64,000 bases of DNA from a virus (IMGVR_UViG_3300033070_001565); one strand, 5' to 3'. Positions 1 through 51,776 are shown, counted from the stretch's first letter. The notes: generated by a model not told the origin, from the sequence alone. Translations and numbers: made by a program.

Positions 1-694
1 AGAGTATGTAATTGTCTCTGATCCTCCATACGGGAACGTTGTCGATGACCCATGGGATTACTGGCCTAGCGATGATGCAACATTCGCTGCTTGGCTCTTC
101 ACATGTTTCGATGGATGGTCTCGGTGGTTGCCAGATGGCGGAGCAATGTACGTTTGGGGAGGTCTGGGTTCAAAAGGATTCAGACCATTTCCGAAATTTA
201 TCGATCTGATCGAAAGGCATACTGATTTTACTTGTCACAATCAGATTGTTTGGTCAAAGCGTCGAGCGTATGGTGTGAGCCACAATTATCTCTTCACACG
301 TCAGGAGCTCGCGTATTTCGTAAAAGGAGATCCAAAGCATCCAAGAGTGTTCAACGTTCCGCTACTTGACAAACTCAGAGGGTACGAGGGATTCGATCCA
401 GATCACCCTGCAAAGAGCGAATTCTATCGTAGAACGAATGTTTGGACTGATTTCAATGAAATCTTTCAAGGAAAGGTTCACAAGGCTCAGAAACCCGATA
501 AGGCATACGAGATTCCGATCGCTGCGTCTTCGAAAGAGGGAGATGTTATTATCGATCCGTTCGGAGGTTCTGGAGTTGCAGGGTGGGTTTCTGCCAGCAT
601 GGGAAGGAGATTTCTGATTATCGAGAAAGATCCTGTTTCGTGGCAGAATATCTGTAACAGAGTGGGAAAGCAACTTGGAGTACTGAATGTCTGA
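1..694 (+). CDS. DNA methyltransferase (beta-class, N6A/N4C type); 5'-partial, continues upstream of the window
   Basis: The frame is open from nt 2 with no upstream stop. Motif IV VIVSDPPYG lies near nt 14-40 and motif I DPFGGSGVAG lies near the C-terminus, giving the permuted beta order. Confidence 0.75.
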   Translation, partial: EYVIVSDPPYGNVVDDPWDYWPSDDATFAAWLFTCFDGWSRWLPDGGAMYVWGGLGSKGFRPFPKFIDLIERHTDFTCHNQIVWSKRRAYGVSHNYLFTRQELAYFVKGDPKHPRVFNVPLLDKLRGYEGFDPDHPAKSEFYRRTNVWTDFNEIFQGKVHKAQKPDKAYEIPIAASSKEGDVIIDPFGGSGVAGWVSASMGRRFLIIEKDPVSWQNICNRVGKQLGVLNV

Positions 695-1496
695 GGGAGA
701 GAGAGTAGTTGGAGACGCATTCGAATGGATGAGATTTTTCGCGAAACCAGCATCCTACCAGTTTGCGTACATTGATCCGCCATTCAATACTGGTCTCACG
801 CGGGTTGGAGATGCTGGTTCGTATAACGATTACTATGCGCACGAGGATTACCTCATGCAGATGCGCAGAATTCTCGTGTATCTGAGAGAGTGTCTCACCG
901 TCGATGGAGCCGTTGCAGTACATCTCGATTGGAGAGAGTGTCACTATGTCAGAGTGATTCTCGATGAAGTCTTTGGTCGAGATGCATTCATCAACGAGAT
1001 AATCTGGTCTTACGATTTTGGAGGGAGAGGAAAGCGCTGCTGGCCGAGGAAGCACGACAACATTGCTATTTATGCCCGTACACCTGGGAAGCATTATTTC
1101 GACTGGGATTCCGTTCCAAGAGTACCGTACATGATGAAACCCGGAAAAAATCCGAGATTCGTTACTGCTGAAAAGGCAGCAAAGGGAAAGGCTCTCACTG
1201 ATGTGTGGTGGAGATCTGTCATTGGAACCAACTCGTACGAGAGAACGGGATATCCAACACAGAAGCCCGTTGACATTATTCAAAGGCTCATCTCGGTGCA
1301 CTCTGGACCCGGTGGTAAGGTACTTGATGTGTTCGGTGGATCAGGTACAACAGGGGCAGCCTGCGAGGCTCTAGGGCGTCCTTACACTCTGGTTGACAAG
1401 TCCCTCCAGGCTCACGCTGTGATGGAAAAAAGATTGCAGAAATGTGCAAGCGTGACTTATCTGATTGAAAATACTGACGTCGTATCAGATATTTGA
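687..1496 (+). CDS. DNA methyltransferase (beta-class, N6A/N4C type)
   Basis: Motif IV YIDPPFNTG is followed by motif I LDVFGGSGTTG. There is an 8-nt overlap with the upstream MTase. Confidence 0.8.
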   Translation: MSEGERVVGDAFEWMRFFAKPASYQFAYIDPPFNTGLTRVGDAGSYNDYYAHEDYLMQMRRILVYLRECLTVDGAVAVHLDWRECHYVRVILDEVFGRDAFINEIIWSYDFGGRGKRCWPRKHDNIAIYARTPGKHYFDWDSVPRVPYMMKPGKNPRFVTAEKAAKGKALTDVWWRSVIGTNSYERTGYPTQKPVDIIQRLISVHSGPGGKVLDVFGGSGTTGAACEALGRPYTLVDKSLQAHAVMEKRLQKCASVTYLIENTDVVSDI

Positions 1497-2983: not shown

Positions 2984-5900
2984 ATGACCGCCCCAAAACA
3001 ATTTGTTGGTCTTCATGCACACTCGAACTTTTCAACGTTCGATGGGCTTGGATATCCTGATGAGCACCAGGCATTTGCAGTTGAGAACGGACTCGATGCT
3101 CACGCTCTCACAGACCATGGAAACATGAATGGGTTTCCTCATGCTGAGCAAAATGCTCGAGCGCTGAACAAGAAAGGTGTGAAGTTCAAGTTTCTGCCTG
3201 GTGTTGAGGCGTATTACCACCCTGATCTCTCTGACTGGCGCAAGTCTCACGCGGCAGCTGCAGAGGCCCGTAAGGCTGCGAAGAAATCTGAGATTCTCGA
3301 AGAGGACGCCGGCGTCACCGTCGAGAACGAAGAGGAGACGAAGGACACATCTCGCCCCGCTGATCCTATCAGGCGGAGGCATCACATGGTTCTCCTCGCA
3401 AAGTCTCGGCGTGGGTTGCAGAACATGTTTCAGCTCGTCTCACGCTCGTACAATGAGGGATTCTACAAGTTTCCCAGGATTGATCGTGCAATGCTGAAAG
3501 AGCATGGCGAGGATATTGTCGTCACGTCTGCATGCATTGGCGGTGCACTTGCGTACGATGTTAACGAGGCACTCAGGGGCTGCGCAACACGCGGGGCTCA
3601 CGAGCTCGATGATCCTGCAAGGATGGAAGCAGCTCTCAGATCGATTGGAAACACTGTCGATCAGATCACTGATGCTGTTGGCGTTGAGAATTTCTTTCCT
3701 GAGATTCAGTTCAATAAGCTGGACATGCAGCACACTGTGAATCGAGCTCTGCTCGAGTTCTCAAAGCGCAATGGTCTGAAGCCCGTTGCAACTGCAGACT
3801 CTCACTATTGCCGCCCAGAACTCTGGATCGAACGCGAGATCTACAAGAAGCTCGGCAGATTGAAGTTCGAGCAGATCGATCCCTCTCTGATGCCAAAGGA
3901 TAAGTCTCAGCTAAAGTGCGAGCTCTATCCAAAGAACGCACATCAGATGTGGGAAACGTACAACGAGGTGAAGCAAGAATACGATTGGTACGACGATGAA
4001 GTGATCTGCGGTGCAATCGAACGCACGTGGGATATTGCTCACAGTCTGATTGGTAACCCGAGTCCAGATACTTCGATGAAGCTTCCGAAGTTTCTTGTGC
4101 CGGAGGGAATGACTCCCCTCGCATATCTCATCGAACTCTGTAAGACAGGAATCAAAGAGAAAGGTCTTCATACAAAGAAAGAGTATGTTGACCGCTTGCG
4201 CATGGAACTTGAAACGATCAAGACGAAAGACTTTGCTCTCTACTTCATTACGATGAAATCAATCATTGACATTGCAAAGTCAAAGATGATTGTCGGGCCT
4301 GGCCGTGGATCGGCTGCAGGTTCACTGATCTGCTATATATTGGGCATTACGTCAATTGACCCAATTAAGTACAAATTGTTGTTCGAAAGATTCATTTCAC
4401 CTTCGCGAAAAGACTCTCCAGATATTGACAATGACCTATCTGATCGAGATACTCTTGTAAAATCGCTACGTTTGTCATATGGCGAAGAGAACGTGTATCC
4501 AATTCTCAATATCAACACGCTACAATTGAAGTCTCTCGTGAAAGACATCTCAAAGATGCACGGGATACCGTTCGAAGAAGTGAACGAAGCAACGAAGCGC
4601 CTCGATGAAGACGTGCGTCACAAGGCAATGCCAGAGGGTGAGAACAAGTCTCTCTTCATGCTGAAGTACGATGACTGCATGCAGTACTCTGAGCCCTTCC
4701 GCAAATTCATCACTGAGCACCCTGAAGTTGGCGATCATGTCAAAGTACTTTATCGTCAGCCCCGCGGGTTGGGTAAACATGCAGGTGGAGTCATTGTGAC
4801 TCAAGATGCCAGCAAACATATGCCTCTGATTGCAGCTGGAGGTGAAATGCGTACTCCTTGGGTTGAGGGTATGAATAGGAAAGATCTTGAGGTCTATGGG
4901 CTCATCAAATTCGACCTGCTCGGTCTCGAGACTCTGAGAATCATCGAGAACTGCGCGAGACTCATTCTCAAACGTCATGAGGGCGTCAAAAATCCAACAT
5001 GGGATCAGGTGCGTGGATGGGTTGAAAAGAATCTCGATCCCGAGACGATGGATCTCAATGATCAACGCGTTTATGAGAACGTGTTCATTGACGGGAAGTT
5101 TGCCGGCACGTTCCAGTTTACGGCAAAGCACACGCAAAAGTTTATTAAGGCGCTGCAACCGCGTTCGATTGGCGATCTGTCTGTTGCAACTTCGATCTAC
5201 CGGCCCGGTCCTCTTGCGGCAAAGGTCGATAAACTTTATATTGAAAAGAAACGCAGAGCTGAGTCTGGTGAAATTTTCAAGTATGATCACCCTGCGATTG
5301 AGAAAGTACTCGGCCGCACATACGGTTATTTGGTTTTCCAAGAACAGCTCATGCATCTTGCTGCCGAGCTTGCAGGATTCAATCCAGATGAGTGCGATAA
5401 ACTGCGTAAAGTAATCCTTAAGCGTTCAGTACAAGCCCAGGCCGGTCAGAAGGGTGAGGTCCAGATACTTGAGGACAAGTTTATTGACGGCGCTGTTGCA
5501 AACGGACTTAAACGAGAAAAAGCTGTTGCGCTTTTTGACGAAATCGCCGCAATGTGTTCATATGCATTCAACGAAAGTCACGCTGTGTGCTATAGCATTG
5601 ATTCATATCACTGCGCATGGCTCCTAACGTATTACGAGGCCGAATGGCTCTGTGCTTATGCAGAGACAATGATCGGTAATAAAGAGAACCGTGAGATCAT
5701 GATGTCAGAGGTAAAGTCTCTCGGATACACGATTGGAAACGTTGATATCAACCTCTCGTATCCAGAGTGGACAATCGACGATGTGAACAGGCGTCTCATT
5801 CCGTCATTCAAAACAGTCACAGGGATTGGTGATGCTGCAATCGAAGAGATCATGCAAAACCGCCCATACAAGGATCTCAGAGATTTGCTCTGGGAAAATG

Positions 5901-6496
5901 GCGAATGGCGTCATGCGAAGATGAACAAGCGCGTTCTTGATGCTCTGATCAAGATCGGCGGTCTCGAATCGCTGGGAATGATTGGCAAGGGTAAGCTCTT
6001 CGAGCACTCTCGACACTTGCACGAGATCGTGATTGGAAATTTCGATCTTCTACGTAAGAAAAATGGCTTCACGACGCTCATCAATCTCATCGCATCTGAA
6101 CCAGTACCGAAAGATTGGTCTCAGCAAGAGAAGCTAGAAATGATGAGATCGCTCGTCGGAAATGTCAATGTCGACGATCTTGTGTCGCAGTCAATGGTTA
6201 CAAAGCTCGCAGAGAAGGGAATTCCCTCGATTGATGAGCTCGAGCCCGGCGAGAAGCAAATATCTTGGTTCCTTGTTGCAGGATGCGAGGTAAAAAAGAC
6301 AAAAACGGGTAAGAATTACCTTAAGATATCAGCGTACGGTTCGACCTCTACTGCACGCACAATCATGTGCTGGGGTTACAAGTCGGAAGCTCCGCCAGAG
6401 ACGGGTGGTCTCTGGCTTGCAGAGGTAGAACGAAATGAGACCGGGTGGTCAACGGTCGCCTGGCGGATGAGATCAATCACTCAGTCTGCGAATTGA
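2984..6496 (+). CDS. dnaE: DNA polymerase III alpha subunit (DnaE-type, N-terminal PHP domain)
   Basis: The N-terminal PHP motif is GLHAHSNFSTFDG. The core shows PDIDNDLSDRD (catalytic Asp cluster), FDLLGL and FQEQ motifs over 1170 aa. Confidence 0.9.
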   Translation: MTAPKQFVGLHAHSNFSTFDGLGYPDEHQAFAVENGLDAHALTDHGNMNGFPHAEQNARALNKKGVKFKFLPGVEAYYHPDLSDWRKSHAAAAEARKAAKKSEILEEDAGVTVENEEETKDTSRPADPIRRRHHMVLLAKSRRGLQNMFQLVSRSYNEGFYKFPRIDRAMLKEHGEDIVVTSACIGGALAYDVNEALRGCATRGAHELDDPARMEAALRSIGNTVDQITDAVGVENFFPEIQFNKLDMQHTVNRALLEFSKRNGLKPVATADSHYCRPELWIEREIYKKLGRLKFEQIDPSLMPKDKSQLKCELYPKNAHQMWETYNEVKQEYDWYDDEVICGAIERTWDIAHSLIGNPSPDTSMKLPKFLVPEGMTPLAYLIELCKTGIKEKGLHTKKEYVDRLRMELETIKTKDFALYFITMKSIIDIAKSKMIVGPGRGSAAGSLICYILGITSIDPIKYKLLFERFISPSRKDSPDIDNDLSDRDTLVKSLRLSYGEENVYPILNINTLQLKSLVKDISKMHGIPFEEVNEATKRLDEDVRHKAMPEGENKSLFMLKYDDCMQYSEPFRKFITEHPEVGDHVKVLYRQPRGLGKHAGGVIVTQDASKHMPLIAAGGEMRTPWVEGMNRKDLEVYGLIKFDLLGLETLRIIENCARLILKRHEGVKNPTWDQVRGWVEKNLDPETMDLNDQRVYENVFIDGKFAGTFQFTAKHTQKFIKALQPRSIGDLSVATSIYRPGPLAAKVDKLYIEKKRRAESGEIFKYDHPAIEKVLGRTYGYLVFQEQLMHLAAELAGFNPDECDKLRKVILKRSVQAQAGQKGEVQILEDKFIDGAVANGLKREKAVALFDEIAAMCSYAFNESHAVCYSIDSYHCAWLLTYYEAEWLCAYAETMIGNKENREIMMSEVKSLGYTIGNVDINLSYPEWTIDDVNRRLIPSFKTVTGIGDAAIEEIMQNRPYKDLRDLLWENGEWRHAKMNKRVLDALIKIGGLESLGMIGKGKLFEHSRHLHEIVIGNFDLLRKKNGFTTLINLIASEPVPKDWSQQEKLEMMRSLVGNVNVDDLVSQSMVTKLAEKGIPSIDELEPGEKQISWFLVAGCEVKKTKTGKNYLKISAYGSTSTARTIMCWGYKSEAPPETGGLWLAEVERNETGWSTVAWRMRSITQSAN

Positions 6497-6503
6497 GCTA
6501 CAA

Positions 6504-7064
6504 ATGGCAAAGCAAAAGAAAAAATCTTCAGATCCCAATCAGCTTAGAACTCTTGTTGTCGATGCGTCGTACCAACCAATTCGTCTGTGCCCATCAATCA
6601 GGGCGTTCTTGCTCCTCATGAGGAATGCAGGAGAGGTTGTCGAATCTTGGGATGTCGAGCTCGCTCCGGGTATCTATGCGCCCGCCGTTATCCGTCTCAA
6701 GCGTACAGGTGCTGGGATCTGGCTCCGCGCAAAACGTACAAAGTTCCGCCGTGAGGTTGTCTTCACTCGCGATTCGTGGACTTGCCAGTATTGTAGCGCA
6801 AGCGTTACGAACAAGAATGCCACAATCGATCATGTGCTTCCACGTAAACACGGGGGAGATACTTCATGGCAAAACTGTGTCACATGCTGCCTTTCTTGTA
6901 ATTCGAAGAAGGGATCAAAACTTGGAATGCAGCCGCTCAGGAAGCCTGCAACTCCGGATCCTCTTCACTTTCACGGCGCAAAGGGTACAAAACGTCACCC
7001 TGCATGGAAAGATTACGTCAATGAGGATGTACTTAAGGCAGTATGCGGAACAATGACCGTCTGA
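6504..7064 (+). CDS. HNH endonuclease
   Basis: The HNH zinc-finger-like motif is CQYCSA...TIDHVLPRKHGG...WQNCVTCCLSCNSKKG. Confidence 0.8.
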   Translation: MAKQKKKSSDPNQLRTLVVDASYQPIRLCPSIRAFLLLMRNAGEVVESWDVELAPGIYAPAVIRLKRTGAGIWLRAKRTKFRREVVFTRDSWTCQYCSASVTNKNATIDHVLPRKHGGDTSWQNCVTCCLSCNSKKGSKLGMQPLRKPATPDPLHFHGAKGTKRHPAWKDYVNEDVLKAVCGTMTV

Positions 7065-7339
7065 TCGACTCTTACGTGCGAAGAATCGTCGCAGAAGCAG
7101 TCGATACTGATAAGAAATTTTCTAAAGTCGATTACGACAGGGTTGCTCATGAGCTTGTGAGCAAGTATGGCAAGACCACCGAAGTTGGCTGGGAGGTTGT
7201 TGCTGTCAAAACTTTCGTAAAAGCTGAGCACAGCGTTGGCAATGAGTGGGACGAAAAGAAGCTCATTGACGCTGTACGCAAATGCCATGAGGAGAACATG
7301 GAGGCAGTGGCCGATGCCAACGTTCAAAGAATTTATTAA
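7043..7339 (+). CDS. small protein with YVRRIVAEAV N-terminal leader (capsid-targeting-like)
   Basis: N-terminus is MRNNDRLIDSYVRRIVAEAVD, the same leader as the 8-paralogue family. Confidence 0.4.
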   Translation: MRNNDRLIDSYVRRIVAEAVDTDKKFSKVDYDRVAHELVSKYGKTTEVGWEVVAVKTFVKAEHSVGNEWDEKKLIDAVRKCHEENMEAVADANVQRIY

Positions 7340-8042
7340 TGAGATTTCGACGACTCCTGTAAAAGTGCTCGTTCACGATGAGATGAACGATACTGATACT
7401 GAGATCGTTGGATCTGGAGACGATGAAGAATTCAAACTGCCGCTTCCGCAGAGATTCGCAGGTCACCAAGCAAAGTTCGCAGGGTGCGTTTCATCTCATC
7501 TCTGCGTTCTTGCAAGTTTTGCACGTGCAATACATCTTTACGCTCACAGCGCCCACGTGAGCGTAAAGGGACAAACCTTCATGCAAGATCACGAATTTCT
7601 TGGAGATGTATACTCGGCGGCCGGGGATACTGTCGATTCTCTCTTTGAACGTGCGATTGGAACAGGCGGAGACGGTCCCGGTCATGTCCTAGCTCACATG
7701 AAGGTGTGCGCAGAGATACTCAGAGAGCACTGTTGCGACACATGCTGCGGAGTTGGAGTCAATTCGATTCTCTCACGCACCGAGTCTCTCATCAAAGAAT
7801 TCGTTGAGATGATCTCTCACGTCAGAGAATCTTGTGAACTATCTGACGGTACCGATAATCTTCTGTGTGATATCGCAGACAAGTACGAAGTAACTTTGTA
7901 TAAGCTGCAGCAGCGTCTGGCTTTACAGGGATACTCAATCGTTTCCTCCTCGAGCGTTTACCGAGGAGCCCATACTCAATATCGATCGAGCTCAAAGGCG
8001 GCCCGAAGAGCTCAGCCATGTCATATTGAGTCTGCACAATGA
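7314..8042 (+). CDS. Dps/ferritin-like protein (start uncertain)
   Basis: The segment AIHLYAHSAHVSVKGQTFMQDHEFLGDVY resembles the Dps ferroxidase helix pair. The ATG at 7314 is in frame with the longer ORF starting at 7236. Confidence 0.4.
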   Translation: MPTFKEFINEISTTPVKVLVHDEMNDTDTEIVGSGDDEEFKLPLPQRFAGHQAKFAGCVSSHLCVLASFARAIHLYAHSAHVSVKGQTFMQDHEFLGDVYSAAGDTVDSLFERAIGTGGDGPGHVLAHMKVCAEILREHCCDTCCGVGVNSILSRTESLIKEFVEMISHVRESCELSDGTDNLLCDIADKYEVTLYKLQQRLALQGYSIVSSSSVYRGAHTQYRSSSKAARRAQPCHIESAQ

Positions 8043-8073
8043 AAATAAGTGTTTCCATGGAGATAATGTAAGT

Positions 8074-9129
8074 ATGAAAATTGCCATCACGGGTGTTGCA
8101 GGTCTCATTGGTTCTTGGCTTTCTCGTCACGCTCTGGATCTCGGTGACTCTGTCGTTGGATTCGATGACCTTTCTTCTGGCTACCAATCGAACATTGACA
8201 ATAGAGTAAAATTCATCCAGACGAATGTTGCGAGTGCGGCAAACAGTACTCTTTCAAAGGACTTGTTCGGTTGTGATATTGTGTACCACGCCGCTGCAAC
8301 TGCTTATGAGGGCCTGTCTGTTTTCTCTCCAACAACAATTACGAATAACATTATCACCGGCACTACGAATCTCATTACCGCAGCAGTAAATGCCCGAGTT
8401 GGCATGTTCGTGAACATGTCATCAATGGCACGTTATGGACACGGAGATGGTAAATCGTTTTTCAAAGAGACTGATGATTGTCACCCCGTTGATCCGTACG
8501 GAATGGCAAAGTATTTTGCAGAACAGCAAATGCAGATGATTGCATCTCTACACGGGATCAAGTGTATTACTGTTGTGCCTCACTCTGTGAATGGTCCCGG
8601 ACAGAAGTACGATGACCCTTACAGGAATGTTGTGTCGATCATGGCGAACCTCATGCTACAGGGGAGACAGCCATTCATCTATGGCACTGGTGAACAGAAA
8701 CGTGGTTTCTGTGATGTCAGAGATGTCGTGCCAATGATCTATCAGCTTGGATTGTTGAGGTCAGAGATGTCAGATCATGACAACAGCGAAGTGTACAACG
8801 TTGGATTCGACCGACCTGAGGATTTTGTAAGTATCAATGAACTTGCGAGGCTCGTGGCTGCCGAAGTTGGATTTAGTGATCTTAGACCCATTTACATGCC
8901 GGGCCGGCCGGCTGAGGTAAAGATCGCGAATTGCTCATCTGATAAGATCAGAGCGTACTTTCGCGGAAACATCGAGAGAAATATTACTCTCCATGAATCC
9001 GTGCATGATATTGTAGAATCAATCAAAGCGACTGGAGTAAAGCCATTCAGCTACAAGCACATTGGTGTTGAGATTGAGAATTCGAAAAAGCTGAATTGTC
9101 CCGTGACTTGGAAAAATAAGATGTTCTGA
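8074..9129 (+). CDS. NAD-dependent epimerase/dehydratase (extended SDR)
   Basis: Rossmann motif MKIAITGVAGLIGSWL and catalytic YGMAKYFAE (YxxxK). Confidence 0.8.
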   Translation: MKIAITGVAGLIGSWLSRHALDLGDSVVGFDDLSSGYQSNIDNRVKFIQTNVASAANSTLSKDLFGCDIVYHAAATAYEGLSVFSPTTITNNIITGTTNLITAAVNARVGMFVNMSSMARYGHGDGKSFFKETDDCHPVDPYGMAKYFAEQQMQMIASLHGIKCITVVPHSVNGPGQKYDDPYRNVVSIMANLMLQGRQPFIYGTGEQKRGFCDVRDVVPMIYQLGLLRSEMSDHDNSEVYNVGFDRPEDFVSINELARLVAAEVGFSDLRPIYMPGRPAEVKIANCSSDKIRAYFRGNIERNITLHESVHDIVESIKATGVKPFSYKHIGVEIENSKKLNCPVTWKNKMF

Positions 9130-9145
9130 GATATGATGCGAGTAC

Positions 9146-11209
9146 ATGATTATCGGTTACTCGTACCATGGTTTCTGCCAGCACATTACTAATGCGAACG
9201 TAGCAAAAACGCCTGACAGCCAACGTCTCATGCGGATGCAGTTCGTTGATGAGCTAGAGAAGCTCGGATGTAAAATCGTTGCCCTCCAGCCCCAGCGTGA
9301 GGAGGCTGGATCTCTTTACAAGATTACGAACGAGCATGGAAAATTTCCTGAGATTGATGCTCTCTTTCTTGAGTGGCGCTGGCCCACGTGGAAGAACACA
9401 ACAATCAGCGATCCTACCGGGTGGAGCGAGGATCTCGATTCGTTTAAATCGTGTCAAGAGCGTGACTGGGTCGAGCAGAGGAAGCTCATTCAGTACTACA
9501 CAATCGAGCGTGATATTCCGACATTCATTCACGATCTTGATTACAAGTTTACGCAGCAAGATGCAAACGCACTCTTGAATTCGTACTTGAAACATACAAA
9601 TCAGGAGATTAGTTACGAAGCATATCGGCAAGAGATATCGATTCCTAGAATCACGATTCTCGATCCCGGTCTCTCTCCATCATCCCATACCGGACATTTC
9701 AAGCGTATCTCTGTTCCCAATTACAGTAGCTACGATCCTGAGTTTATCAGTGAGTTTCGCAAGTTCTTCCCGCCTGATCCTAACCCACTCATGTACGGGT
9801 ACATTGGAAACAATTACGAAAGAGATCAGCAGTTCGAGCGTTACTATGGTAACCCATCACGTAGGCTGCGTAGAGAGGGAGTGCAGACGATCGTCTACGG
9901 TAACTGGACCTCTCGAAGTCCAGAACGTTGCGATCCCAGCACGACTTTCATCAAGTATCCCAGCATCGCCTTTCCAGGAAGGGTTGGCTTCTCAGATGCA
10001 ATGCACAGGCTCCGTGAGTTTGGATGTGTGACTCACATTGGAAAGGATGAAAAGTTTGCAGAGAATCACGTGATCACAATCAGGTATCACGAGGCGGCTC
10101 TCTGCGGAGTTCCTGCATTCGTTCCCTCTTGTTACAAACATGCAGACATTCTTGGAAAACAGTGGGTTGTGAGCGATGAAAAAGATGTTCTTGACCGCGT
10201 ACGATATGTGAGAGGCATGACGCTTCAAGAACGCCTCCGCGTTGTGGACGATCAAATGGAATCAATGCGTCTCAAGTGTGTTGAACTCAAGACGAGCGTC
10301 GATGTGAGAGACATCACAAAAAGAATTGTACGAATTGTCAATGATGATGATTTCAAGCAGACAATGACGCTATTAGGAGAAAAAAAGATGATAATGCTAT
10401 TCGAAGGTCCTGATCGCTGCGGTAAGACAACAATCGCGAAGTCTGTTTCGCTAGCGACACGCATTCCTTATTTCAAGTCTCGCGGAGAAAGAAAAGCAAT
10501 CTCATCGCGAGATAACGGTGCAGAGTGGTTCAAAAATACGCTTCTCTACTCAGGTCAGTACTTTGCAGATTACATCGAACAAACGAAACCGAGCATTATC
10601 ATTGACCGTGGGTACCCTTCTGAACGCGTGTACTCAAAGTTCTTTGCTCGTGAGACTCTTGAAGACGTACACAAGAAGATTGACGCAGCTTATAACCGCG
10701 CAAACGTTCGGATCATTGTCTGCCGTCGCAAATCTTACAAGGGTATCAAAGACGATGTGCGTCCAGACATTATCAATAGCGAGTCTCTTGAGCGAATCGA
10801 CTCGCTGTACGATGAGTTTGCAAAATGGACAACCTGCCCTGTACACACCGTTTGGGTGGATGATCACGATCTTGCTCGACAGACTGCAGATGTGATCGAG
10901 TTTGCTTGGAATGTGAAGGCATTATGCAAAACGTTCTTGTCACCGGTGGATATGGATTCATCGGCTCTCGCATGTGCAGGTTCCTGTCTCAAAATGGGAT
11001 TCAGTATGACATTGCAGACGATATGTCATTCGCACTGTACAAGCCAAAGTCAGATCACTCGAGCTCGATTAATTTCGGTTCGTGCGATTCTCCGGCTCTT
11101 CTCGCAAGGATTGCATCTGGTTACTACGATACGATCTTTCACTTTGCGGCTTGGGGACGTGTTGGAATGTGCACGAGTCAACCAATCGAGTCTCACGCTT
11201 CGAACGTAA
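9146..11209 (+). CDS. GT-B-like glycosyltransferase fused to a P-loop (dNMP-kinase-like) domain
   Basis: RYHEAALCGVPAFVP is GT-B-like (EAxxxGxPxx). The Walker A motif LFEGPDRCGKTTIAKS lies near residue 410. The tail is low-complexity and overlaps the next gene by about 285 nt. Confidence 0.5.
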   Translation: MIIGYSYHGFCQHITNANVAKTPDSQRLMRMQFVDELEKLGCKIVALQPQREEAGSLYKITNEHGKFPEIDALFLEWRWPTWKNTTISDPTGWSEDLDSFKSCQERDWVEQRKLIQYYTIERDIPTFIHDLDYKFTQQDANALLNSYLKHTNQEISYEAYRQEISIPRITILDPGLSPSSHTGHFKRISVPNYSSYDPEFISEFRKFFPPDPNPLMYGYIGNNYERDQQFERYYGNPSRRLRREGVQTIVYGNWTSRSPERCDPSTTFIKYPSIAFPGRVGFSDAMHRLREFGCVTHIGKDEKFAENHVITIRYHEAALCGVPAFVPSCYKHADILGKQWVVSDEKDVLDRVRYVRGMTLQERLRVVDDQMESMRLKCVELKTSVDVRDITKRIVRIVNDDDFKQTMTLLGEKKMIMLFEGPDRCGKTTIAKSVSLATRIPYFKSRGERKAISSRDNGAEWFKNTLLYSGQYFADYIEQTKPSIIIDRGYPSERVYSKFFARETLEDVHKKIDAAYNRANVRIIVCRRKSYKGIKDDVRPDIINSESLERIDSLYDEFAKWTTCPVHTVWVDDHDLARQTADVIEFAWNVKALCKTFLSPVDMDSSALACAGSCLKMGFSMTLQTICHSHCTSQSQITRARLISVRAILRLFSQGLHLVTTIRSFTLRLGDVLECARVNQSSLTLRT

Positions 11210-11979
11210 CTGCAACACTGAAATTGCTCGATGCATGCTCAAAAGTTGATGGGAAGAAACCGACGGTGATTGTCTCATCCTCTTCTGCTGTGTATGGGAA
11301 TGCACAGTCCGGTGAGCTTGGAGAGGATGGTCCAGTGGGCCCCATTTCACTCTATGGTCACCAGAAACTTACAGTTGAAGGGTATTGCCGTCTCTTTACA
11401 CAAACTCATGGAGTACCAACCGTGTGTCTCCGGTACTTCAATGTGTACGGATCAGGGCAACTTGCAAGAGGACCGTACACGACGGTAATGGCAGCGTGGG
11501 TCGATGCCCATGTAAGAGGTGAGCAGCTCAGGTGGGATGGCGATGGTGAACAGAGACGAGATTACGTGAATGTTGATGATGTCATCAACGCAAACATTCT
11601 CGCTGCAAAGAATCCCACCGGTAAGGTGTACAATGTTGGTACGGGATTTGATTACTCAAATTCTCAGCTGAGAGCAATGCTTGGTGATCTCGGCGTGAGA
11701 TTCGATAACGTCCGCATGGCTCCTGCAAGGATTGGTGACCCAGCAAAGACATGTGCAAATATCGACAGGATAGGTAATGATCTTGGCTGGAGGCCTCTGA
11801 TTCTCCTCAAAGAGGGTCTGAGAAATATGACAGTGATGGCTCTCATGAATAAAAGCCCAAAGAAAGAAGTGTTAAATGGAAGTAACAGGACGAAACTTTA
11901 CAGAAGTTTATGGCAAGCTGGCGAATGCTCTCATCAAATATCGTTACTTGCCCTCTCCAAGGGGATCCGAATCCCGTGA
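10924..11979 (+). CDS. NAD-dependent epimerase/dehydratase (second copy)
   Basis: MQNVLVTGGYGFIGS Rossmann motif, a YGHQK YxxxK motif, and a C-terminal GLRNMT region. Confidence 0.75.
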   Translation: MQNVLVTGGYGFIGSRMCRFLSQNGIQYDIADDMSFALYKPKSDHSSSINFGSCDSPALLARIASGYYDTIFHFAAWGRVGMCTSQPIESHASNVTATLKLLDACSKVDGKKPTVIVSSSSAVYGNAQSGELGEDGPVGPISLYGHQKLTVEGYCRLFTQTHGVPTVCLRYFNVYGSGQLARGPYTTVMAAWVDAHVRGEQLRWDGDGEQRRDYVNVDDVINANILAAKNPTGKVYNVGTGFDYSNSQLRAMLGDLGVRFDNVRMAPARIGDPAKTCANIDRIGNDLGWRPLILLKEGLRNMTVMALMNKSPKKEVLNGSNRTKLYRSLWQAGECSHQISLLALSKGIRIP

Positions 11980-12886
11980 GCTGCTGGGGGTTAATTTCGA
12001 GATCGAAGACCCGCTTGATCGTCTCCCAAGAATCCAGTCAAGGAATTTCAATCTTGCGTACTGTATTGCAGAGATTATCTGGTACCTCTCTGGTTCCAAC
12101 TCTGTCAAATGGATTGCACGGTACTCTCCATTCTGGCTCGGCGTGTCAGATGATGGTGTGACAGCGAATTCGGCTTATGGTAGCAGAATCTTCAGGCAGA
12201 ACGATGCTCTTGGATTCGATATCGTTCAATGGGAGACTGTAAAACAACATCTCATTGATGATCCATTTACACGCAGAGCAGTGATTCACATCAAAACTCC
12301 TGCAGATAATGATCCCTCGAGCAAGGACATTCCTTGCACTCTAGATCTTCAATTCATTTTGAGAGAGGGTCGTCTCAACATGTTTGTCAACATGCGTTCG
12401 AGCGATCTCATCTTTGGGATTGGAAACGACATTCCTGCATTCACATTCTTCCAAGAACTCATGGCAAATGAACTTGGAGTCGAAGTAGGGACGTACTCAC
12501 ACAAGAGCAACTCTCTGCACGTTTACCCGCGTCATTATGCTCTTGTGAATAGCATGGTGAACGAGCTCGATGCTGAGATTCCAACGTTCGTAAGAATGCC
12601 TAAATTGCCTCGAGGCGATGTTCCCATTGTCGATCTTGTGAAGGCTGCAGACGGTCTTGAGAGGAGAGATATCTCTCCCGATGAAGTGAAGGCGATCGTC
12701 GATTATTTCTCGATACTACCGTACTTCAGAGATTGGGTTTCAATCCTTGCTCTGCGGACAATCAAGAGCAGACTTAACAATCTGTCATTCGTGCTTGGCG
12801 CATATGAAATGAGAGCTGATTTTCTGAGTCTCCAGGAAGATCTCATCAAGAGTCTCCATACCGCTTACAGGTGGTATTATGCTTGA
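11876..12886 (+). CDS. thymidylate synthase-fold pyrimidine (hydroxy)methylase (ThyA/dNMP hydroxymethylase family)
   Basis: DIPCTLDLQFIL (catalytic Cys) is followed by MRSSDLIFGIGNDIPAF and SLHVY, matching the ThyA core order. His is absent after the Cys (PCT, not PCH). Confidence 0.6.
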   Translation: MEVTGRNFTEVYGKLANALIKYRYLPSPRGSESRELLGVNFEIEDPLDRLPRIQSRNFNLAYCIAEIIWYLSGSNSVKWIARYSPFWLGVSDDGVTANSAYGSRIFRQNDALGFDIVQWETVKQHLIDDPFTRRAVIHIKTPADNDPSSKDIPCTLDLQFILREGRLNMFVNMRSSDLIFGIGNDIPAFTFFQELMANELGVEVGTYSHKSNSLHVYPRHYALVNSMVNELDAEIPTFVRMPKLPRGDVPIVDLVKAADGLERRDISPDEVKAIVDYFSILPYFRDWVSILALRTIKSRLNNLSFVLGAYEMRADFLSLQEDLIKSLHTAYRWYYA

Positions 12887-13331
12887 TCGTCCGGACTGGG
12901 ACAGCGTGTGGATGCATATGGCACAGACAATTGCTCTGAGGGCCTACGATGAGAAGCTGAAGGTGGGATCCGTAATCGTCTCTGACGATAACACACGGGT
13001 TCTTGCGATCGGGTACAATGGAAATTACAAAGGTGGTCCAAATACCCGAGATTCGTTGGAGCCCGGTCAGAGTGGAATGCTCCACAGCGAGCTAAATGCT
13101 CTGTTGAAACTGAACTATCACGATCCAGTTCGCAAGAAGTTGTATGTGACTTCATCTCCGTGCAAGGACTGTGCAAAATGTATCATACAATCAGCGATTG
13201 ATGAAGTGATATTCTTGAATGTCTTTGCACGAGATCCGAGCGGAATTAGCTTGCTTAGTTCGAACGGGATTAAAGTTAGACAACTGGTGACTACTTACTT
13301 GAGTGATCCTGAACAGAAAGAAGCTCATTGA
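12879..13331 (+). CDS. dCMP deaminase (cytidine/deoxycytidylate deaminase zinc-binding)
   Basis: HSELNAL (HxE) and SPCKDCAKC (PCxxC) motifs. Confidence 0.8.
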   Translation: MLDRPDWDSVWMHMAQTIALRAYDEKLKVGSVIVSDDNTRVLAIGYNGNYKGGPNTRDSLEPGQSGMLHSELNALLKLNYHDPVRKKLYVTSSPCKDCAKCIIQSAIDEVIFLNVFARDPSGISLLSSNGIKVRQLVTTYLSDPEQKEAH

Positions 13332-13560
13332 GGGCATACACACTGCGTACGTTAGCTCAAGGGGGAAACTGCTCGAAGCTCTGTCACTTCAGTCTGACAC
13401 TGCCAAGATTGCTCCAGGCTTGAAAGTATCGCACGAGAGTTCAGGTCTCAGATACGATGTAGTAATCGTCGGATCTGAGGGCGTGAAACTGCGCGCTCCC
13501 GATGGTGGAGAGTTCGTTGTGAGACGTCAAGATTTTGAAAGGGAGTACTCAATTGGCTGA
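13303..13560 (+). CDS. hypothetical protein
   Basis: ORF of 85 aa. Confidence 0.3.
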   Translation: MILNRKKLIEGIHTAYVSSRGKLLEALSLQSDTAKIAPGLKVSHESSGLRYDVVIVGSEGVKLRAPDGGEFVVRRQDFEREYSIG

Positions 13561-14245
13561 TATTAGAGACGTGATAGACATTGAGGAAGTGCTCAGAGAA
13601 GCGGGAGTACCTGTAAAGTCTCGTTCTAAGATTATTACAGAGGCAACTGTTGCGCAGCCGAAGAAATTTCGTGTTGCTAGCGAGTCTGTATCTCAGAATA
13701 CAAAAGACGAGCACGCAGAGCTCTATGAAATGTACGTAAACACGTACAACAAGCTTTCGATCGAACTCGACTCTGAGAAGTCAACAGGCATCAGAAAACG
13801 CGAGTTGAAAATCGATGAGACTTATAACAGAAACGGAATCTACCTCCACGAGCTGTATTTCGCGAATTCGTTTGACGTAAAGTCACAGATATTCGCAGAT
13901 ATGCTATGCTGCGTACGATTTGAGCGTGATTGGGGGAATTTCGACGCATGGCAGAGAGATTTCTTCTCTTGTGCAATGTCTGCGAGAGAGGGCTGGGCAT
14001 GCACTGGATACGGGTTGTGGGAGAAGAAGTACGTAAACTTCTTCATTGATGGTCACGATGCTCATGTTCCGCTAGGCATCATTCCCGTCCTTGTAATCGA
14101 CATGTGGACTCACGCGTCAAAGGATTATGGGAATAACAAGAAAGAGTACTTGACATCACAGCTCAAGGAAATTAATTGGGACGTTGTCGAAGAGCGTGTT
14201 CAAAAATGTGAAAAATTCGAGATCGCATTATGTCATACACTCTAA
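13535..14245 (+). CDS. Fe/Mn superoxide dismutase-like protein (start TTG or GTG, uncertain)
   Basis: DEHAELYEMYVNTYNKL, GIYLHELYFANSF and IDMWTHASKDYGNNKKEYL align with SOD ligand motifs (HHxKHH, HxxFW, DVWEHAYY), with partial ligand conservation. Confidence 0.45.
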   Translation: MKGSTQLADIRDVIDIEEVLREAGVPVKSRSKIITEATVAQPKKFRVASESVSQNTKDEHAELYEMYVNTYNKLSIELDSEKSTGIRKRELKIDETYNRNGIYLHELYFANSFDVKSQIFADMLCCVRFERDWGNFDAWQRDFFSCAMSAREGWACTGYGLWEKKYVNFFIDGHDAHVPLGIIPVLVIDMWTHASKDYGNNKKEYLTSQLKEINWDVVEERVQKCEKFEIALCHTL

Positions 14246-14694
14246 AAAATTTGATAGAAAGGGTTGATCCCGATCTCGGGCAGGGAAACGACTCTCTTGA
14301 TGCAGAGGTAGACCGTCTGCTAACGACATTCTTGCAAGATGCGAAATCAAAGCAGCTAGAATCTCGTTCTCGAATCAAAGAAGCAGAATCACGCAGATTC
14401 GAAAAGCCTGCAGATGGAAAGCAAAAGGGAATCGAGCAAGTCGACTGTGCAAGACTGGCACAGTCAATGCAGCGGCTTATCGAGTCTCCTGAAGATATGC
14501 TCGATCTCAAGGGTCTTGTACTAAGGAGGTGCGTATCTTTCATTTCTCAACGATACGATGAACCGACCGTTGAGGCTCTCAAAAGACAGCTTGCTCAGAG
14601 GGGCATAGATTTCAATGACGTACATGGAAATAATGCAGACCTTGAACATCCTGCTCCTAGGGCAGATCGAGCAGGCCCTGGCGGGGGCTTATGA
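14230..14694 (+). CDS. hypothetical protein
   Basis: ORF of 154 aa, charged and helical. Confidence 0.4.
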   Translation: MSYTLKNLIERVDPDLGQGNDSLDAEVDRLLTTFLQDAKSKQLESRSRIKEAESRRFEKPADGKQKGIEQVDCARLAQSMQRLIESPEDMLDLKGLVLRRCVSFISQRYDEPTVEALKRQLAQRGIDFNDVHGNNADLEHPAPRADRAGPGGGL

Positions 14695-22490: not shown

Positions 22491-23156
22491 ATGAAAACCA
22501 CTATTAAGTACATTGAAGAACACTGTGCCGGGTGCATTGTTCACAGAACTGGTGAAAATGGTACAGAGATCCTCATGATACAGCCTCAAGCAGGATCTGC
22601 ATGGGGACTTCCAAAAGGTCACATTGAAAGAAATGAGTCTTTTGAGACAGCCGCAATCCGAGAAACACGAGAGGAAACCGGTATAAAGGTAAAGATTAGC
22701 GGAACTGTACCGTTTCCGGCAGTGTTTCGAAACAGCAAATTGAAGAAAGAAGTATGGTTCTTTGTAGCAGAGCCCATTGATCCCAACGAAGCACTCGTTA
22801 ACTCTCACGAAACAGTGTGTGTTGCATGGTGGCCAATCTCAGCGCTTCCACCAATCCACGCATACCAACGCGGAGTTGTCGGGTGGTTCCTAGGGCAGCT
22901 CGATGCAAAAGAAATCCCTCATGCTCTTCCGATCGAAATCGAAAAGCAAATGCAAATTGCTGAAAATCTTTTTCCCCCTGACGTGAACTGGATGGAACTC
23001 AAGAAAGAAATCATGTTTCACAGTCCGATCCACGTGAGATGCTTCTTTTCGAGAAGAGATCCGAGAACAAAGAAGCAACGTATGAACTCTTTCGAGAAAT
23101 TGGTATCTGAGGGATGGAAAGCACGTACGGGAGAGTATCCCATATTCAGACCATAA
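22491..23156 (+). CDS. Nudix hydrolase
   Basis: Nudix box GLPKGHIERNESFETAAIRETREETGI. Confidence 0.8.
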   Translation: MKTTIKYIEEHCAGCIVHRTGENGTEILMIQPQAGSAWGLPKGHIERNESFETAAIRETREETGIKVKISGTVPFPAVFRNSKLKKEVWFFVAEPIDPNEALVNSHETVCVAWWPISALPPIHAYQRGVVGWFLGQLDAKEIPHALPIEIEKQMQIAENLFPPDVNWMELKKEIMFHSPIHVRCFFSRRDPRTKKQRMNSFEKLVSEGWKARTGEYPIFRP

Positions 23157-25119: not shown

Positions 25120-25612
25120 GAAACAGCTGCTAGGACAGATAGCAGCTTTTTTGAATTATTCGAAGCCACTTCCTCCAGAGACTATCAAAGAACTCAATAT
25201 GTACCTCAAAAAGGGCTGGTACAGAGGAGTGTTGAAAACGCCTGATTCCAAAAAAGTGTACAGAGGAATTTATTTGCCATCTGATTCATTCAGACAGGCT
25301 TACAGGATTCCTCCGGACGTTTCTGAGGGAGTGATTACAAACAATCAGTGGTACACCGCTCCAAATGGTTGTTCGTCATGGACAACGAATAAAACCGTTG
25401 CATCAATCGGCGCGAAACCAAGACCATTTCGCCCAGCACCAGGTCTTGCTCAGGTAGTTCTGCATGCTTATACAGCACAGAATCAATTCAAGTTCGTCGT
25501 TTGCAGATCGGGTCTCTATAAGATTGCTGGTCTTGATTCGAACGATGAAAAATCAGAGGTCATTGGACTCGGTAGAATCGAAATCTTCAAAATAGAGTAC
25601 GAGATTGGCTGA
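25016..25612 (+). CDS. hypothetical protein (GTG start or later Met)
   Basis: Product of 198 aa, upstream of the paralogue array. Confidence 0.35.
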   Translation: MPKPPEAPDGAPLEKWAWAPQRSDGVPEEANTEHEKQLLGQIAAFLNYSKPLPPETIKELNMYLKKGWYRGVLKTPDSKKVYRGIYLPSDSFRQAYRIPPDVSEGVITNNQWYTAPNGCSSWTTNKTVASIGAKPRPFRPAPGLAQVVLHAYTAQNQFKFVVCRSGLYKIAGLDSNDEKSEVIGLGRIEIFKIEYEIG

Positions 25613-26226
25613 TGTTCGAATCATACGTTCGTTCAATCGTCGAAGCTGCAGTCAAACCAATGCAAGCTGCCGAAAATGGTCTCGCTCTGTGCAAGAAGCA
25701 AGGCAGCATTACTCTGTACGATCCTGCAAAGCTCCTGAGCGATCCCACTGGCTCTCTCCCAAATATCGGTCAGTCTTATTCAAAAATTGTGATGGCTCAC
25801 TTGAAGTACGTAACGAAATCAGCGGGAGGTGAGAAACTCAATCAAGTAAAATCTGCAGCAGCGAAACACGGATACGGGCCCGTGATCTATGACGCTCTGC
25901 TGAATACAGGGTGGACAATGCCAGACAGACTCTCTGTATCTCACGAGGCCCTACGCGTTTGGAACTATTACGCGAATAAACGCGGAGATGTTTCGATGAA
26001 GCCTCTGCCTCCAGCATTCTGTGTACCAGATGATGATGTGTACAATGACGAACAGTTGAAACTCGTAAACTCTGCGTACTTTGTACCAGATCTACAATCG
26101 GGTTACTCTGAACTGATCGATGCGCACGAGGAATTTGTACGCGCTCTCCGTCCGTATCACACAGCAAATTCTGTCGAAACGTACCTGTCAAAGGCAGGAG
26201 ATCTTCTATTCGGTGAGCTGTACTGA
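25612..26226 (+). CDS. tandem paralogue 1 of 8 (YVRSIVEAAV leader; GYGPxxYD / PDRxSVS / RVWxYY core)
   Basis: MFESYVRSIVEAAV...HGYGPVIYD...PDRLSVSHEALRVWNYY. Confidence 0.6.
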   Translation: MFESYVRSIVEAAVKPMQAAENGLALCKKQGSITLYDPAKLLSDPTGSLPNIGQSYSKIVMAHLKYVTKSAGGEKLNQVKSAAAKHGYGPVIYDALLNTGWTMPDRLSVSHEALRVWNYYANKRGDVSMKPLPPAFCVPDDDVYNDEQLKLVNSAYFVPDLQSGYSELIDAHEEFVRALRPYHTANSVETYLSKAGDLLFGELY

Positions 26227-30079: not shown

Positions 30080-30080
30080 A

Positions 30081-51728: not shown

Positions 51729-51776
51729 TTGATTCAAATCTATATTTGTTGTTGCGTGTTTTCAGCTAATTGATTT

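Follow-up and report, generated by a model that had tools for sequence, protein, structure and literature searches.

A stretch of viral DNA of 64,000 nucleotides (IMGVR_UViG_3300033070_001565), called the window here, carries on its plus strand, between positions 8074 and 13,331, a compact cassette of genes that very probably serves to hypermodify a DNA base, by placing a sugar on a hydroxymethylpyrimidine. An earlier note, made from the sequence alone, had reported five contiguous genes at this place, and all five are there (Table 1): a sugar-nucleotide enzyme of the short-chain dehydrogenase/reductase (SDR) family, a glycosyltransferase of the GT-B fold in one open reading frame (ORF) with a P-loop nucleotide kinase, a second SDR enzyme, a homolog of thymidylate synthase (TS) and a dCMP deaminase. 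All coordinates are those of the window unless a locus is named; names of the form L005 denote contigs and genomes with related loci. Gene presence, folds, active-site signatures, homologies and linkage across many loci are direct results, and they point to a two-stage pathway for the hypermodification of cytosine, resembling that of T4, in a phage unrelated to T4. We consider this reading probable, and well short of certain.

Identity of the modified base

The earlier note had described the TS-fold enzyme as non-canonical, and so it is: its motif reads P-C-T, and the best NCBIfam thymidylate synthase model reaches only 71 bits against a cut-off of 327. Among solved structures (PDB) its best match is MilA, a CMP 5-hydroxymethylase (7e-40), followed by canonical thymidylate synthases (4e-17 to 5e-12, with E. 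coli-type entries near 1e-13), T4 dCMP hydroxymethylase (2e-15), and chains 9iqu/9iqc (2e-8), which we take to be the flavin-type enzyme of phage HY126. The TS homolog of Lactobacillus phage ATCCB is 44% identical to that of the window.

We aligned the protein with E. coli ThyA, T4 gp42, RB69 gp48, SPO1 gp29, MilA, RL38J1 gp216 and the ATCCB enzyme, and its residues are numbered here as in ThyA: E58, Y94, R126, R127, D143, C146, T147, R166, S167, D169, D177, H207 and Y209. Several of these positions are informative. Replacement of Asn177 by Asp changes the substrate from uracil to cytosine (PMC13326640; PMC5175136); replacement of Leu143 by Asp or Glu gives water access, and accompanies products other than methyl (PMC13326640); replacement of Asp169 by Asn is the mark of flavin-dependent 5-hydroxy-dCMP synthases (PMC13326640); and Ser167 with Arg126 selects deoxyribose, where MilA has Ala and Lys (PMC5175136). 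The controls in our alignments agree with these published rules: SPO1 gp29 has Asn at position 177, and both RB69 gp48 and RL38J1 gp216 have Asn at position 169.

The window's enzyme differs from the canonical ThyA site (Leu143, His147, Asn177) at all three positions, with Asp, Thr and Asp, instead. Position 177 is Asp in the window (G-N-D), T4 gp42, MilA and RB69 gp48; the Asn expected of a dUMP hydroxymethylase, found in SPO1 gp29 (G-A-N) and also in ThyA, is absent. Position 143 is Asp (K-D-I-P-C), and position 169 is Asp as well (M-R-S-S-D), as in T4 (M-R-S-N-D), whereas RB69 and RL38J1 have M-R-S-Q-N. The sugar-selecting residues are those of a deoxy-specific enzyme, R-S-S-D and T-R-R in the window versus R-A-N-D and S-K-R in MilA. 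The nucleophile, Cys146, is invariant in three alignments, and it recurs in each of 49 distinct TS homologs that we took from phage loci beside the window's transferase family. All 49 also have Thr147, Ser167, Asp169 and Asp177, and 46 have Asp143. In L006, the same slot holds a short enzyme like T4 gp42, with the motif S-D-F-M-C-T-N, which argues that the function of the slot is dCMP hydroxymethylation.

Because Asp177 occurs in the window and in every one of the 49 relatives, the product is predicted to be 5-hydroxymethyl-dCMP (5-hm-dCMP) rather than 5-hm-dUMP, the TS homolog to be a dCMP 5-hydroxymethylase, and the modified base to be cytosine rather than a thymine-type base. The general idea of the earlier note, a sugar on a hydroxymethylpyrimidine, thus survives; the base it had in mind, 5-hydroxymethyl-dU (5-hmdU), does not. 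That base would be made as in SPO1, with the deaminase feeding a dUMP hydroxymethylase, and 5-hmdU would be incorporated, possibly phosphorylated by an enzyme like the 5-hmdU DNA kinases (5-HMUDK), and glycosylated to something resembling base J. The TS homolog does share 36.6% identity with SPO1 gp29 across 65% of its length, the two have Asp143 in common, and a dCMP deaminase lies alongside. Deaminases do not discriminate, however—T4 pairs one with its dCMP hydroxymethylase, too—and with Asp177 the deaminase falls into a T4-like role rather than the one the note had assigned to it. Nor did the 5-hmdU DNA kinase that it had suggested materialize: the match between the cassette's kinase and M6 gp54, the one 5-HMUDK family member tested, extends over 22 columns, all of them P-loop (hhalign probability 42%). 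No aGPT-Pplase-like gene occurs in the cassette, either, and we regard the SPO1-like route as very improbable.

The deaminase itself is as the note had it. It matches PHROG 174, dCMP deaminase (2e-38), scores 68.1 bits with dCMP_cyt_deam_1 against a cut-off of 25, and has the zinc motifs H-S-E and P-C-K-D-C (P-C-x-x-C). Its start overlaps the end of the TS homolog by 8 nt, and most relatives keep it. Such intimacy admits a variant in which the TS homolog makes 5-hm-dCMP and the deaminase converts this to 5-hm-dUMP, so that a uracil derivative becomes glycosylated, instead. No known phage uses this route, though; the thymidine kinase of many relatives, together with the deaminase, fits an ordinary supply of dTTP; and the deaminase sequence, on a look that was not in-depth, bears no sign of altered specificity. 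We find the variant scarcely credible.

A further alternative is that the enzyme is a flavin-dependent 5-hydroxy-dCMP synthase, as in RB69 and RL38J1, and that the sugar is ether-linked to C5 by way of 5-hydroxycytosine. Phages with glycosylated 5-hydroxycytosine have the same triad of kinase, transferase and TS homolog, and the UDP-galactopyranose mutase that occurs among the window's relatives, and MilA is the best PDB match of their enzymes, too. Their hallmark Asn169, which the RB69 and RL38J1 controls do have, is found neither in the window's enzyme nor in any of the 49 relatives, however, and the 9iqu/9iqc chains score far below MilA. Trp80, on the folate side, points the same way: three of the four alignments place a Trp there, the fourth puts it one column off, and RB69 and RL38J1 lack it, but we give it little weight. 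Altogether, we place little credence in this alternative.

At L004, a neighbour of the TS homolog with a secondary match to FMN_dh was considered as a source of reduced flavin for a hydroxylase. We dropped it: the protein (L004:10750-11772, 340 aa), the product of one more nucleotide-pool gene, has an IMPDH/GMP-reductase domain (Pfam 8e-92), and the TS homolog of L004 keeps Asp169. Genes of the IMPDH/GMP-reductase type also occur in or near the cassette in L015, L017, L034 and L073; the window's cassette is without one.

Transferase, kinase and sugar supply

The long ORF comprises three things: the transferase (residues 1-412), the P-loop kinase (415-592), and a tail (approximately 593-687). 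The transferase matches no Pfam family. Of its 29 homologs in databases, all stand alone, at 339-414 aa, apart from one of 851 aa that is fused to a carbamoyltransferase; some carry PF13524. The GT-B fold is evident from the structure, which has two Rossmann-like domains and a C-terminal helix that crosses back, and matches GT-B enzymes; the beta- and alpha-glucosyltransferases of T4 (BGT and AGT) are within the top eight structural matches among 48,164 chains. Foldseek comparison with viral models returned phage transferases with TM scores of about 0.5, among them two from Bacillus phage SP-15 and proteins named DNA alpha- or beta-glucosyltransferase.

Sequence comparisons were barren, by contrast. 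The transferase resembles neither T4 AGT nor BGT in sequence, and does not belong by sequence to CAZy families GT72 or GT63. No meaningful similarity was found to RB69 gp47 (N-terminal portion of the transferase split as gp46:47), RL38J1 gp215, or the 'beta-glucosyltransferase' of ATCCB. A tblastn search of 50,697 phage records with the transferase-kinase protein found no relative, and the family appears to be absent from sequenced phages.

The fusion of transferase and kinase, which the earlier note took at face value, is less secure than the domains themselves, both of which are confirmed. At the junction, where the window reads ...TTAGGAGAAAAAAAGATGATAATG..., the element TTAGGAGAAAAAAAGATG comprises an AGGAG, a run of seven A's and the ATG of the kinase. 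The run is six A's long in L010 and L011, which come from different samples and whose transferases are approximately 90% identical to that of the window. In these, the transferase terminates at E-K-R-TGA, the TGA overlaps the ATG of the kinase, and the kinase has its own AGGAG and ATG. L005, with a transferase approximately 70% identical, has a stop codon and then a 13-nt spacer before the kinase, and in all other relatives, too, transferase and kinase are two proteins. To judge from these sequences, a single base in a homopolymer separates the fusion from the two genes of the ancestral state. The seventh A may be an error of sequencing or assembly, a real allele, or a slippage-prone site that yields both forms; whatever its origin, the kinase can be translated independently.

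The tail has a similar history. In L005, the kinase stops at a TGA that is part of an ATGA overlap with the start of the epimerase gene. The window has TGC, instead, and so its ORF continues into epimerase 2 for another 95 codons. Between the window and L010, the kinase domain proper has 48 synonymous and 5 non-synonymous changes, whereas the tail, read in the kinase frame, has 3 and 20; read in the epimerase frame, the same stretch has 20 and 2. We considered, and rejected, the possibility that these C-terminal 95 aa form an additional domain: the pattern is that of unconstrained read-through, and the tail is probably not functional.

The kinase resembles thymidylate kinases. It matches PHROG 761, 'thymidylate kinase', at 1.5e-9 and, weakly, AAA_28; its profile finds YorR of SPbeta (7.6e-8) and deoxyguanosine kinase (2.5e-4) in the PDB. 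Its 17 homologs, all 167-193 aa, have G-P-D-R-C-G-K-(T/S) and D-R-x-Y-(P/A)-(S/C)-E in common. An Arg in the P-loop (G-x-D-R-x-G-K) is typical of class I thymidylate kinases. Homology to RB69 gp45 is full-length (BLASTP 3e-7 over 173 residues; hhalign probability 96.5%), and relationships to RL38J1 gp214 (77%, 161 columns) and to a protein of 167 aa that precedes the TS homolog of ATCCB (94%) are also apparent. The comparison with deoxynucleoside monophosphate (dNMP) kinases that the earlier note had proposed, like that with 5-HMUDK, came down to the P-loop: 20 columns with T4 gp1, at a probability of 8.7%. With tblastn, the kinase alone finds two marginal Pelagibacter phage matches among phages and nothing more, and neither it nor the transferase matches anything in NCBIfam or PADLOC. 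Phosphorylation of 5-hm-dCMP would be its simplest role.

The two SDR proteins, which the note had called epimerase/dehydratases, look like 4-epimerases rather than dehydratases. In each, a nucleotide-binding motif rich in glycine stands at the N terminus, the triad is Ser...Tyr-x-x-x-Lys, and the acidic pair of the 4,6-dehydratases is missing. Epimerase 1 (SS-x-A-x-YG ... Y-G-M-A-K) is closest to the UDP-Glc 4-epimerase of Thermotoga (4zrm, 1e-29) and the UDP-GlcNAc 4-epimerases WbgU and WbpP (1e-26 to 1e-22); in NCBIfam, it matches TviC first and then galE, both far under cut-off. Epimerase 2 (S-S-S-S-A-V-Y-G ... Y-G-H-Q-K) matches 4zrm at 3e-41 and TIGR01179, galE, at 4e-43. MoeE5 and a UDP-GlcA epimerase are further solved relatives of the pair. 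Epimerase 2 is the one kept in nearly all related cassettes; epimerase 1 is a lineage-variable second enzyme, with orthologs at the same place in L005, L010 and L031. The genes that lie between the two epimerases in the cassette of the L018 type match no Pfam family, and give no clue to the sugar. Since phage 4-epimerase-like enzymes would supply the donor, its sugar is probably not glucose but a hexose, HexNAc or hexuronate of the galacto configuration. Phage glycosyltransferases that act on 5-hydroxymethylcytosine (5-hmC) in DNA and need a partner epimerase provide a precedent (bioRxiv 10.1101/2023.12.21.572611).

Related loci and surroundings

Related loci were collected from contigs that encode transferase homologs and, with a transferase profile, from IMG/VR, which yielded 61; all were screened by phmmer with the window's proteins. 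The cassette genes occur together, in varying order, in the 61 IMG/VR loci and several other metagenomic contigs, a clustering far beyond chance. In 47 of the 61, the close set, the transferase is at least 29% identical (best segment) to the window's. The kinase abuts the transferase in 46 of these, in either order, the exception being L057, where it is approximately 3 kb away. The TS homolog lies within 7 kb of the transferase wherever the contig allows, and the epimerase-2 ortholog, the DnaE polymerase, the dCMP deaminase and a Sod_Fe_C-like gene are present, too, wherever the contig is long enough. Most related loci have the deaminase on the downstream side of the TS homolog, thymidine kinase is frequent, and UDP-galactopyranose mutase sits beside the transferase in approximately 24 of the 61. 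The position of the TS homolog shifts, from upstream of the mutase in one group to downstream of the kinase or epimerase in others; a linkage that survives such reshuffling speaks for function rather than inherited synteny. Throughout, the cassette sits in a block of replication and nucleotide-metabolism genes (PolIII alpha, thymidine kinase, dCMP deaminase). The contigs reach 140-280 kb, and the window's DnaE polymerase is no more than approximately 31% identical to that of any GenBank phage; the source lineage is one of uncultivated large phages unrelated to T4.

The transferase family extends into bacteria. A scan of species-representative bacterial genomes found 259 full-length relatives, 27-30% identical, and the best 80 of these are nearly all from Streptomyces and other actinomycetes (L077-L156). 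In 74-76 of the best 80, the neighbourhood is the same as in L009 (4315-12655), a cluster of nine genes found in Streptomyces, Planomonospora, Nonomuraea, Nocardia and relatives: a TS homolog, a carbamoyltransferase, the transferase, a P-loop protein of 174 aa, an S-adenosylmethionine (SAM) methyltransferase, an APH-like kinase, a histidine phosphatase, a 280-aa protein and an SDR epimerase. The TS homologs have Asp143, Thr147, Asp169 and Asp177, and 64 of 78 have Gly167, which recalls the small residue that admits ribo-CMP in MilA. PADLOC models of defence systems matched only the methyltransferase of this cluster, and we found no paper that describes it. It may be an undescribed nucleoside pathway based on 5-hydroxymethyl-cytidylate. 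In bacteria, too, then, the transferase family appears to be tied to cytosine-hydroxymethylating enzymes.

These relatives bear on the level at which the transferase acts. It might not act on DNA at all, but glycosylate free 5-hm-dCMP, 5-hm-dCDP or 5-hm-dCTP; or the sugar genes might serve the glycosylation of the host surface or the virion, and be merely syntenic. The small-molecule look of the actinomycete cluster—Gly167 enzyme, carbamoyltransferase, methyltransferase, APH and phosphatase—favours this, as does the adjacency of the kinase, in either order, and its fusion in the window. A related 5-hmC carbamoyltransferase takes 5-hm-dCTP as well (PMC8670742), and lipid and small-molecule transferases of the GT-B fold match ours as well as the T4 enzymes do. 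Against it, all characterised phage DNA glycosylations are reported to be post-replicative (PMC13326640), and the cassette lies away from structural and lysis genes. Ser167, in all 49 phage enzymes, fits a role in making DNA precursors, unlike the Gly167 of the bacterial branch, and mere synteny with surface or virion genes sits poorly with a TS linkage that outlasts changes of gene order. Action on something other than DNA is unlikely, we think.

One form of the idea would still lead to modified DNA. The transferase and kinase may be paired so nearly invariably because it is the free nucleotide that is glycosylated: the sugar would be put on 5-hm-dCMP or 5-hm-dCDP before polymerisation, and the DnaE-type polymerase would incorporate glycosylated dCTP. 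This we judge decidedly unlikely. If true, it would be the first pre-replicative pathway of DNA glycosylation, tied in evolution to a widespread, undescribed actinomycete cluster with the same transferase and a cytosine hydroxymethylase.

Three observations on the related loci stand apart from these questions. A protein downstream of the deaminase (13535-14245, plus strand) matches the C-terminal domain of Fe/Mn superoxide dismutase alone (Pfam 1e-13), and throughout the phage clade its Sod_Fe_C-like counterparts occur 3' of the deaminase, as a rule with small ORFs between. The DnaE match is in two pieces, approximately 0.9-1 kb apart (at approximately 3300-4200 in the locus), in L018, L019, L021-L023, L027, L028 and L055, which suggests an intein, an intron or the insertion of a homing endonuclease. 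And a cultured phage, ATCCB (L075; MK504445), has in a row, at 5828-9392, a kinase-like protein of 167 aa, a TS homolog, a 'beta-glucosyltransferase' and a UDP-galactopyranose mutase; its TS homolog has R-S-N-D and P-Y-D, the signature of a cytosine hydroxymethylase. ATCCB could be a tractable system in which to pursue the matter of galactofuranosyl-5-hmC.

The surroundings of the cassette are summarized in Table 1. The two DNA methyltransferases, the HNH endonuclease, the HhH-GPD glycosylase and UvdE that the earlier note had placed nearby all exist, but the last two are 21-27 kb off. In the first methyltransferase ORF, the Pfam profile matches over the C-terminal two-thirds only, and the gene may be truncated or split. 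Pfam and PHROG scans also identify a ferritin/Dps-like protein upstream of the cassette. A scan of 6400-14400 for promoters and terminators gave output at the level of chance; a tRNA scan of the whole window found none; and blastn of the module DNA against phage records found no match. The window encodes an XPD-like helicase, and an auxiliary set of proteins that is unusual for a phage: NUDIX, protease, SPFH/Band 7, GroEL-like, radical-SAM and RNA ligase. Eight paralogous genes, for proteins of 204-249 aa with pairwise identities of 28-47% (blastp E 1e-9 to 1e-72), are arrayed in tandem at 25612-30773 on the plus strand, and none of the eight has a Pfam match. Near 49 kb, genes turn to the minus strand and the cumulative GC skew has its peak; nearly all ORFs between 51.7 and 64 kb are small (70-140 aa), as is typical of an early-gene region.

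Table 1. Genes and other features of the cassette, followed by those of the rest of the window
Feature	Coordinates	Strand	Remarks
SDR epimerase 1	8074-9129	+	351 aa; UDP-hexose/HexNAc/HexA C4-epimerase-like; Pfam Epimerase 4e-41
Long ORF, transferase-kinase	9146-11209	+	687 codons; overlaps epimerase 2 at 3' end
GT-B fold glycosyltransferase domain	9146-10381	+	412 aa; predicted sugar transfer to 5-hmC
A7 homopolymer joining transferase and kinase frames	10380-10386	+	Inside kinase ribosome-binding region, AGGAG-A7-G-ATG
Thymidylate-kinase/YorR-like nucleotide kinase	10388-10923	+	178 aa; predicted 5-hm-dCMP to 5-hm-dCDP
Read-through tail of kinase ORF	10924-11209	+	95 codons; other frame than epimerase 2
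SDR epimerase 2	10924-11979	+	351 aa; UDP-glucose 4-epimerase-like; Pfam Epimerase 9e-47, GDP_Man_Dehyd 1e-39
Thymidylate-synthase-fold enzyme	11876-12886	+	336 aa; predicted dCMP 5-hydroxymethylase; Pfam Thymidylat_synt 7e-24
Zinc-dependent dCMP deaminase	12879-13331	+	150 aa; Pfam dCMP_cyt_deam_1 7e-19
DnaE-type DNA polymerase III alpha	2984-6496	+	1170 aa; replicase beside the cassette in almost every relative; context, outside pathway proper
N6_N4 DNA methyltransferase ORFs	128-694, 687-1496	+	Adjacent pair; Pfam
HNH endonuclease	6504-7064		Upstream of cassette
NUDIX hydrolase	22491-23156		Possible dCTP-clearing candidate
Papain-family (papain-like) protease	33113-33922		
HhH-GPD glycosylase	34276-35148		
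SPFH/Band 7 protein	37212-38129		
UvdE	39882-40793		
GroEL-like chaperonin	40803-42413		
Radical-SAM/SPASM protein	44237-45004		
RNA ligase	50688-51737		

The proposed pathway and its precedents

The T4-like pathway that we favour would run as follows. Before replication, the TS homolog, with methylene-tetrahydrofolate, would convert dCMP to 5-hm-dCMP; the Tmk/YorR-like kinase would raise this to the diphosphate, and a host enzyme to the triphosphate, for incorporation by the phage's DnaE-type polymerase. The deaminase would convert dCMP to dUMP, feeding dTMP synthesis and lowering the dC pool, like cd of T4. One or both of the 4-epimerase-like SDR enzymes would turn UDP-sugars of the host into their C4 epimers, one of which would be the donor, and after replication the GT-B enzyme would move the sugar from UDP onto the hydroxyl of 5-hmC in the DNA. 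DNA modified in this way would withstand restriction enzymes and other defences that target nucleic acids. Each catalytic activity in this scheme we infer, and the same goes for the transferase's level of action, the nature of the sugar, and how far cytosine is replaced. Co-occurrence of TS homologs with dCMP deaminases has been described on cytosine-modified metavirome contigs (PMC8670742).

Several considerations weigh against this pathway. The assignment of specificity from a signature of residues is empirical. No characterised DNA glycosyltransferase is detectably similar to the transferase in sequence, the GT-B fold is generic, with many lipid and small-molecule transferases scoring as high as those of T4, and the bacterial branch of the family looks like part of a small-molecule pathway. 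The kinase may not be the enzyme that phosphorylates the modified dCMP: RB69 has an experimentally active dNMP kinase of the T4 gp1 type besides its Tmk-like one, a gene of RL38J1 is annotated likewise, and in RB69 and DLP3 it is the gp1-type kinase that phosphorylates their modified dCMP (PMC13326640). We found no dCTPase in the window, though not every small ORF was scanned for one; the NUDIX protein is the only one that could serve, and complete replacement of cytosine is therefore unproven. Both epimerases fall below the curated GalE cut-off (TIGR01179; 147.5 bits for epimerase 2 and 70.4 for epimerase 1, against 262.3), which makes the donor sugar something of a guess, and for two epimerases only one transferase is to be seen.

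If the pathway is real, sugar-decorated 5-hmC DNA extends beyond the T-even-like phages to a large, uncultivated clade of DnaE-type phages of approximately 140-280 kb. The glycosyl-5-hmC chemistry would be new, and perhaps of several kinds, since relatives swap in a galactopyranose mutase or a second epimerase; and the transferases would be new DNA-modifying enzymes, of possible use in labelling 5-hmC. The cassette would add a further data point to the presence, in every known cytosine-glycosylating lineage, of a Tmk-like kinase alongside the first sugar transferase, and, with its residue signature, the published criteria for telling hydroxymethylating TS homologs from hydroxylating ones can be put to a clean test.

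Among known systems, the T4 pathway is alike in having a TS-type hydroxymethylase with identical D143, C146, T147, S167, D169 and D177, a deaminase, a nucleotide kinase and a GT-B transferase; the b-gt gene of T4 adjoins gene 42, likewise. The lineages are unrelated, however, the window's phage having a DnaE polymerase. Its kinase is like Tmk and YorR rather than gp1, its TS homolog, of 336 aa, is extended at the C terminus and stands nearer MilA than gp42, and its 4-epimerases, like the galactopyranose mutase of its relatives, imply a donor other than the UDP-glucose of T4. The 5-hydroxycytosine clusters of RB69, DLP3 and RL38J1 have the same triad of kinase, transferase 1 and TS homolog, and supply their own NDP-sugar (PMC13326640); RL38J1 and the window's relatives have UDP-galactopyranose mutase in common. 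They differ in that the window's enzyme lacks the Asp169Asn change, so that hydroxymethylation is predicted rather than hydroxylation, in that the transferases are not detectably related, and in that SDR epimerases take the place of an arabinose-5-phosphate route.

In the TET-type systems, too, a glycosyltransferase is paired with an epimerase that supplies the UDP-sugar for 5-hmC, and GT-B enzymes are associated with TS homologs in metagenomes (bioRxiv 10.1101/2023.12.21.572611). There, 5-hmC arises after replication by the action of a methyltransferase and a dioxygenase, neither of which the cassette encodes; here, it would arise before replication by that of the TS homolog, instead. MilA, of mildiomycin biosynthesis, is the closest solved structure by sequence, with the A/P-C-T-L motif, Asp143 and the cytosine-specifying Asp, but its Ala176 and Lys133 favour ribo-CMP, whereas the window has the Ser and Arg of deoxy-specific enzymes (PMC5175136), and its setting is an antibiotic cluster rather than a phage. 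The 5-HMUDK systems of M6, ViI and SP10 likewise build on a TS-derived hydroxymethylpyrimidine handle and have a P-loop kinase in the cluster (PMC8989533); the base predicted here is cytosine, and the cassette has no 5-HMUDK, amino-acid:DNA transferase, or pyridoxal-phosphate (PLP) or radical-SAM partner. Each component of the cassette thus has its precedent, and it is the combination that is new, along with the transferase family, the sugar, which is probably not glucose, and the phage lineage in which all of this is found.

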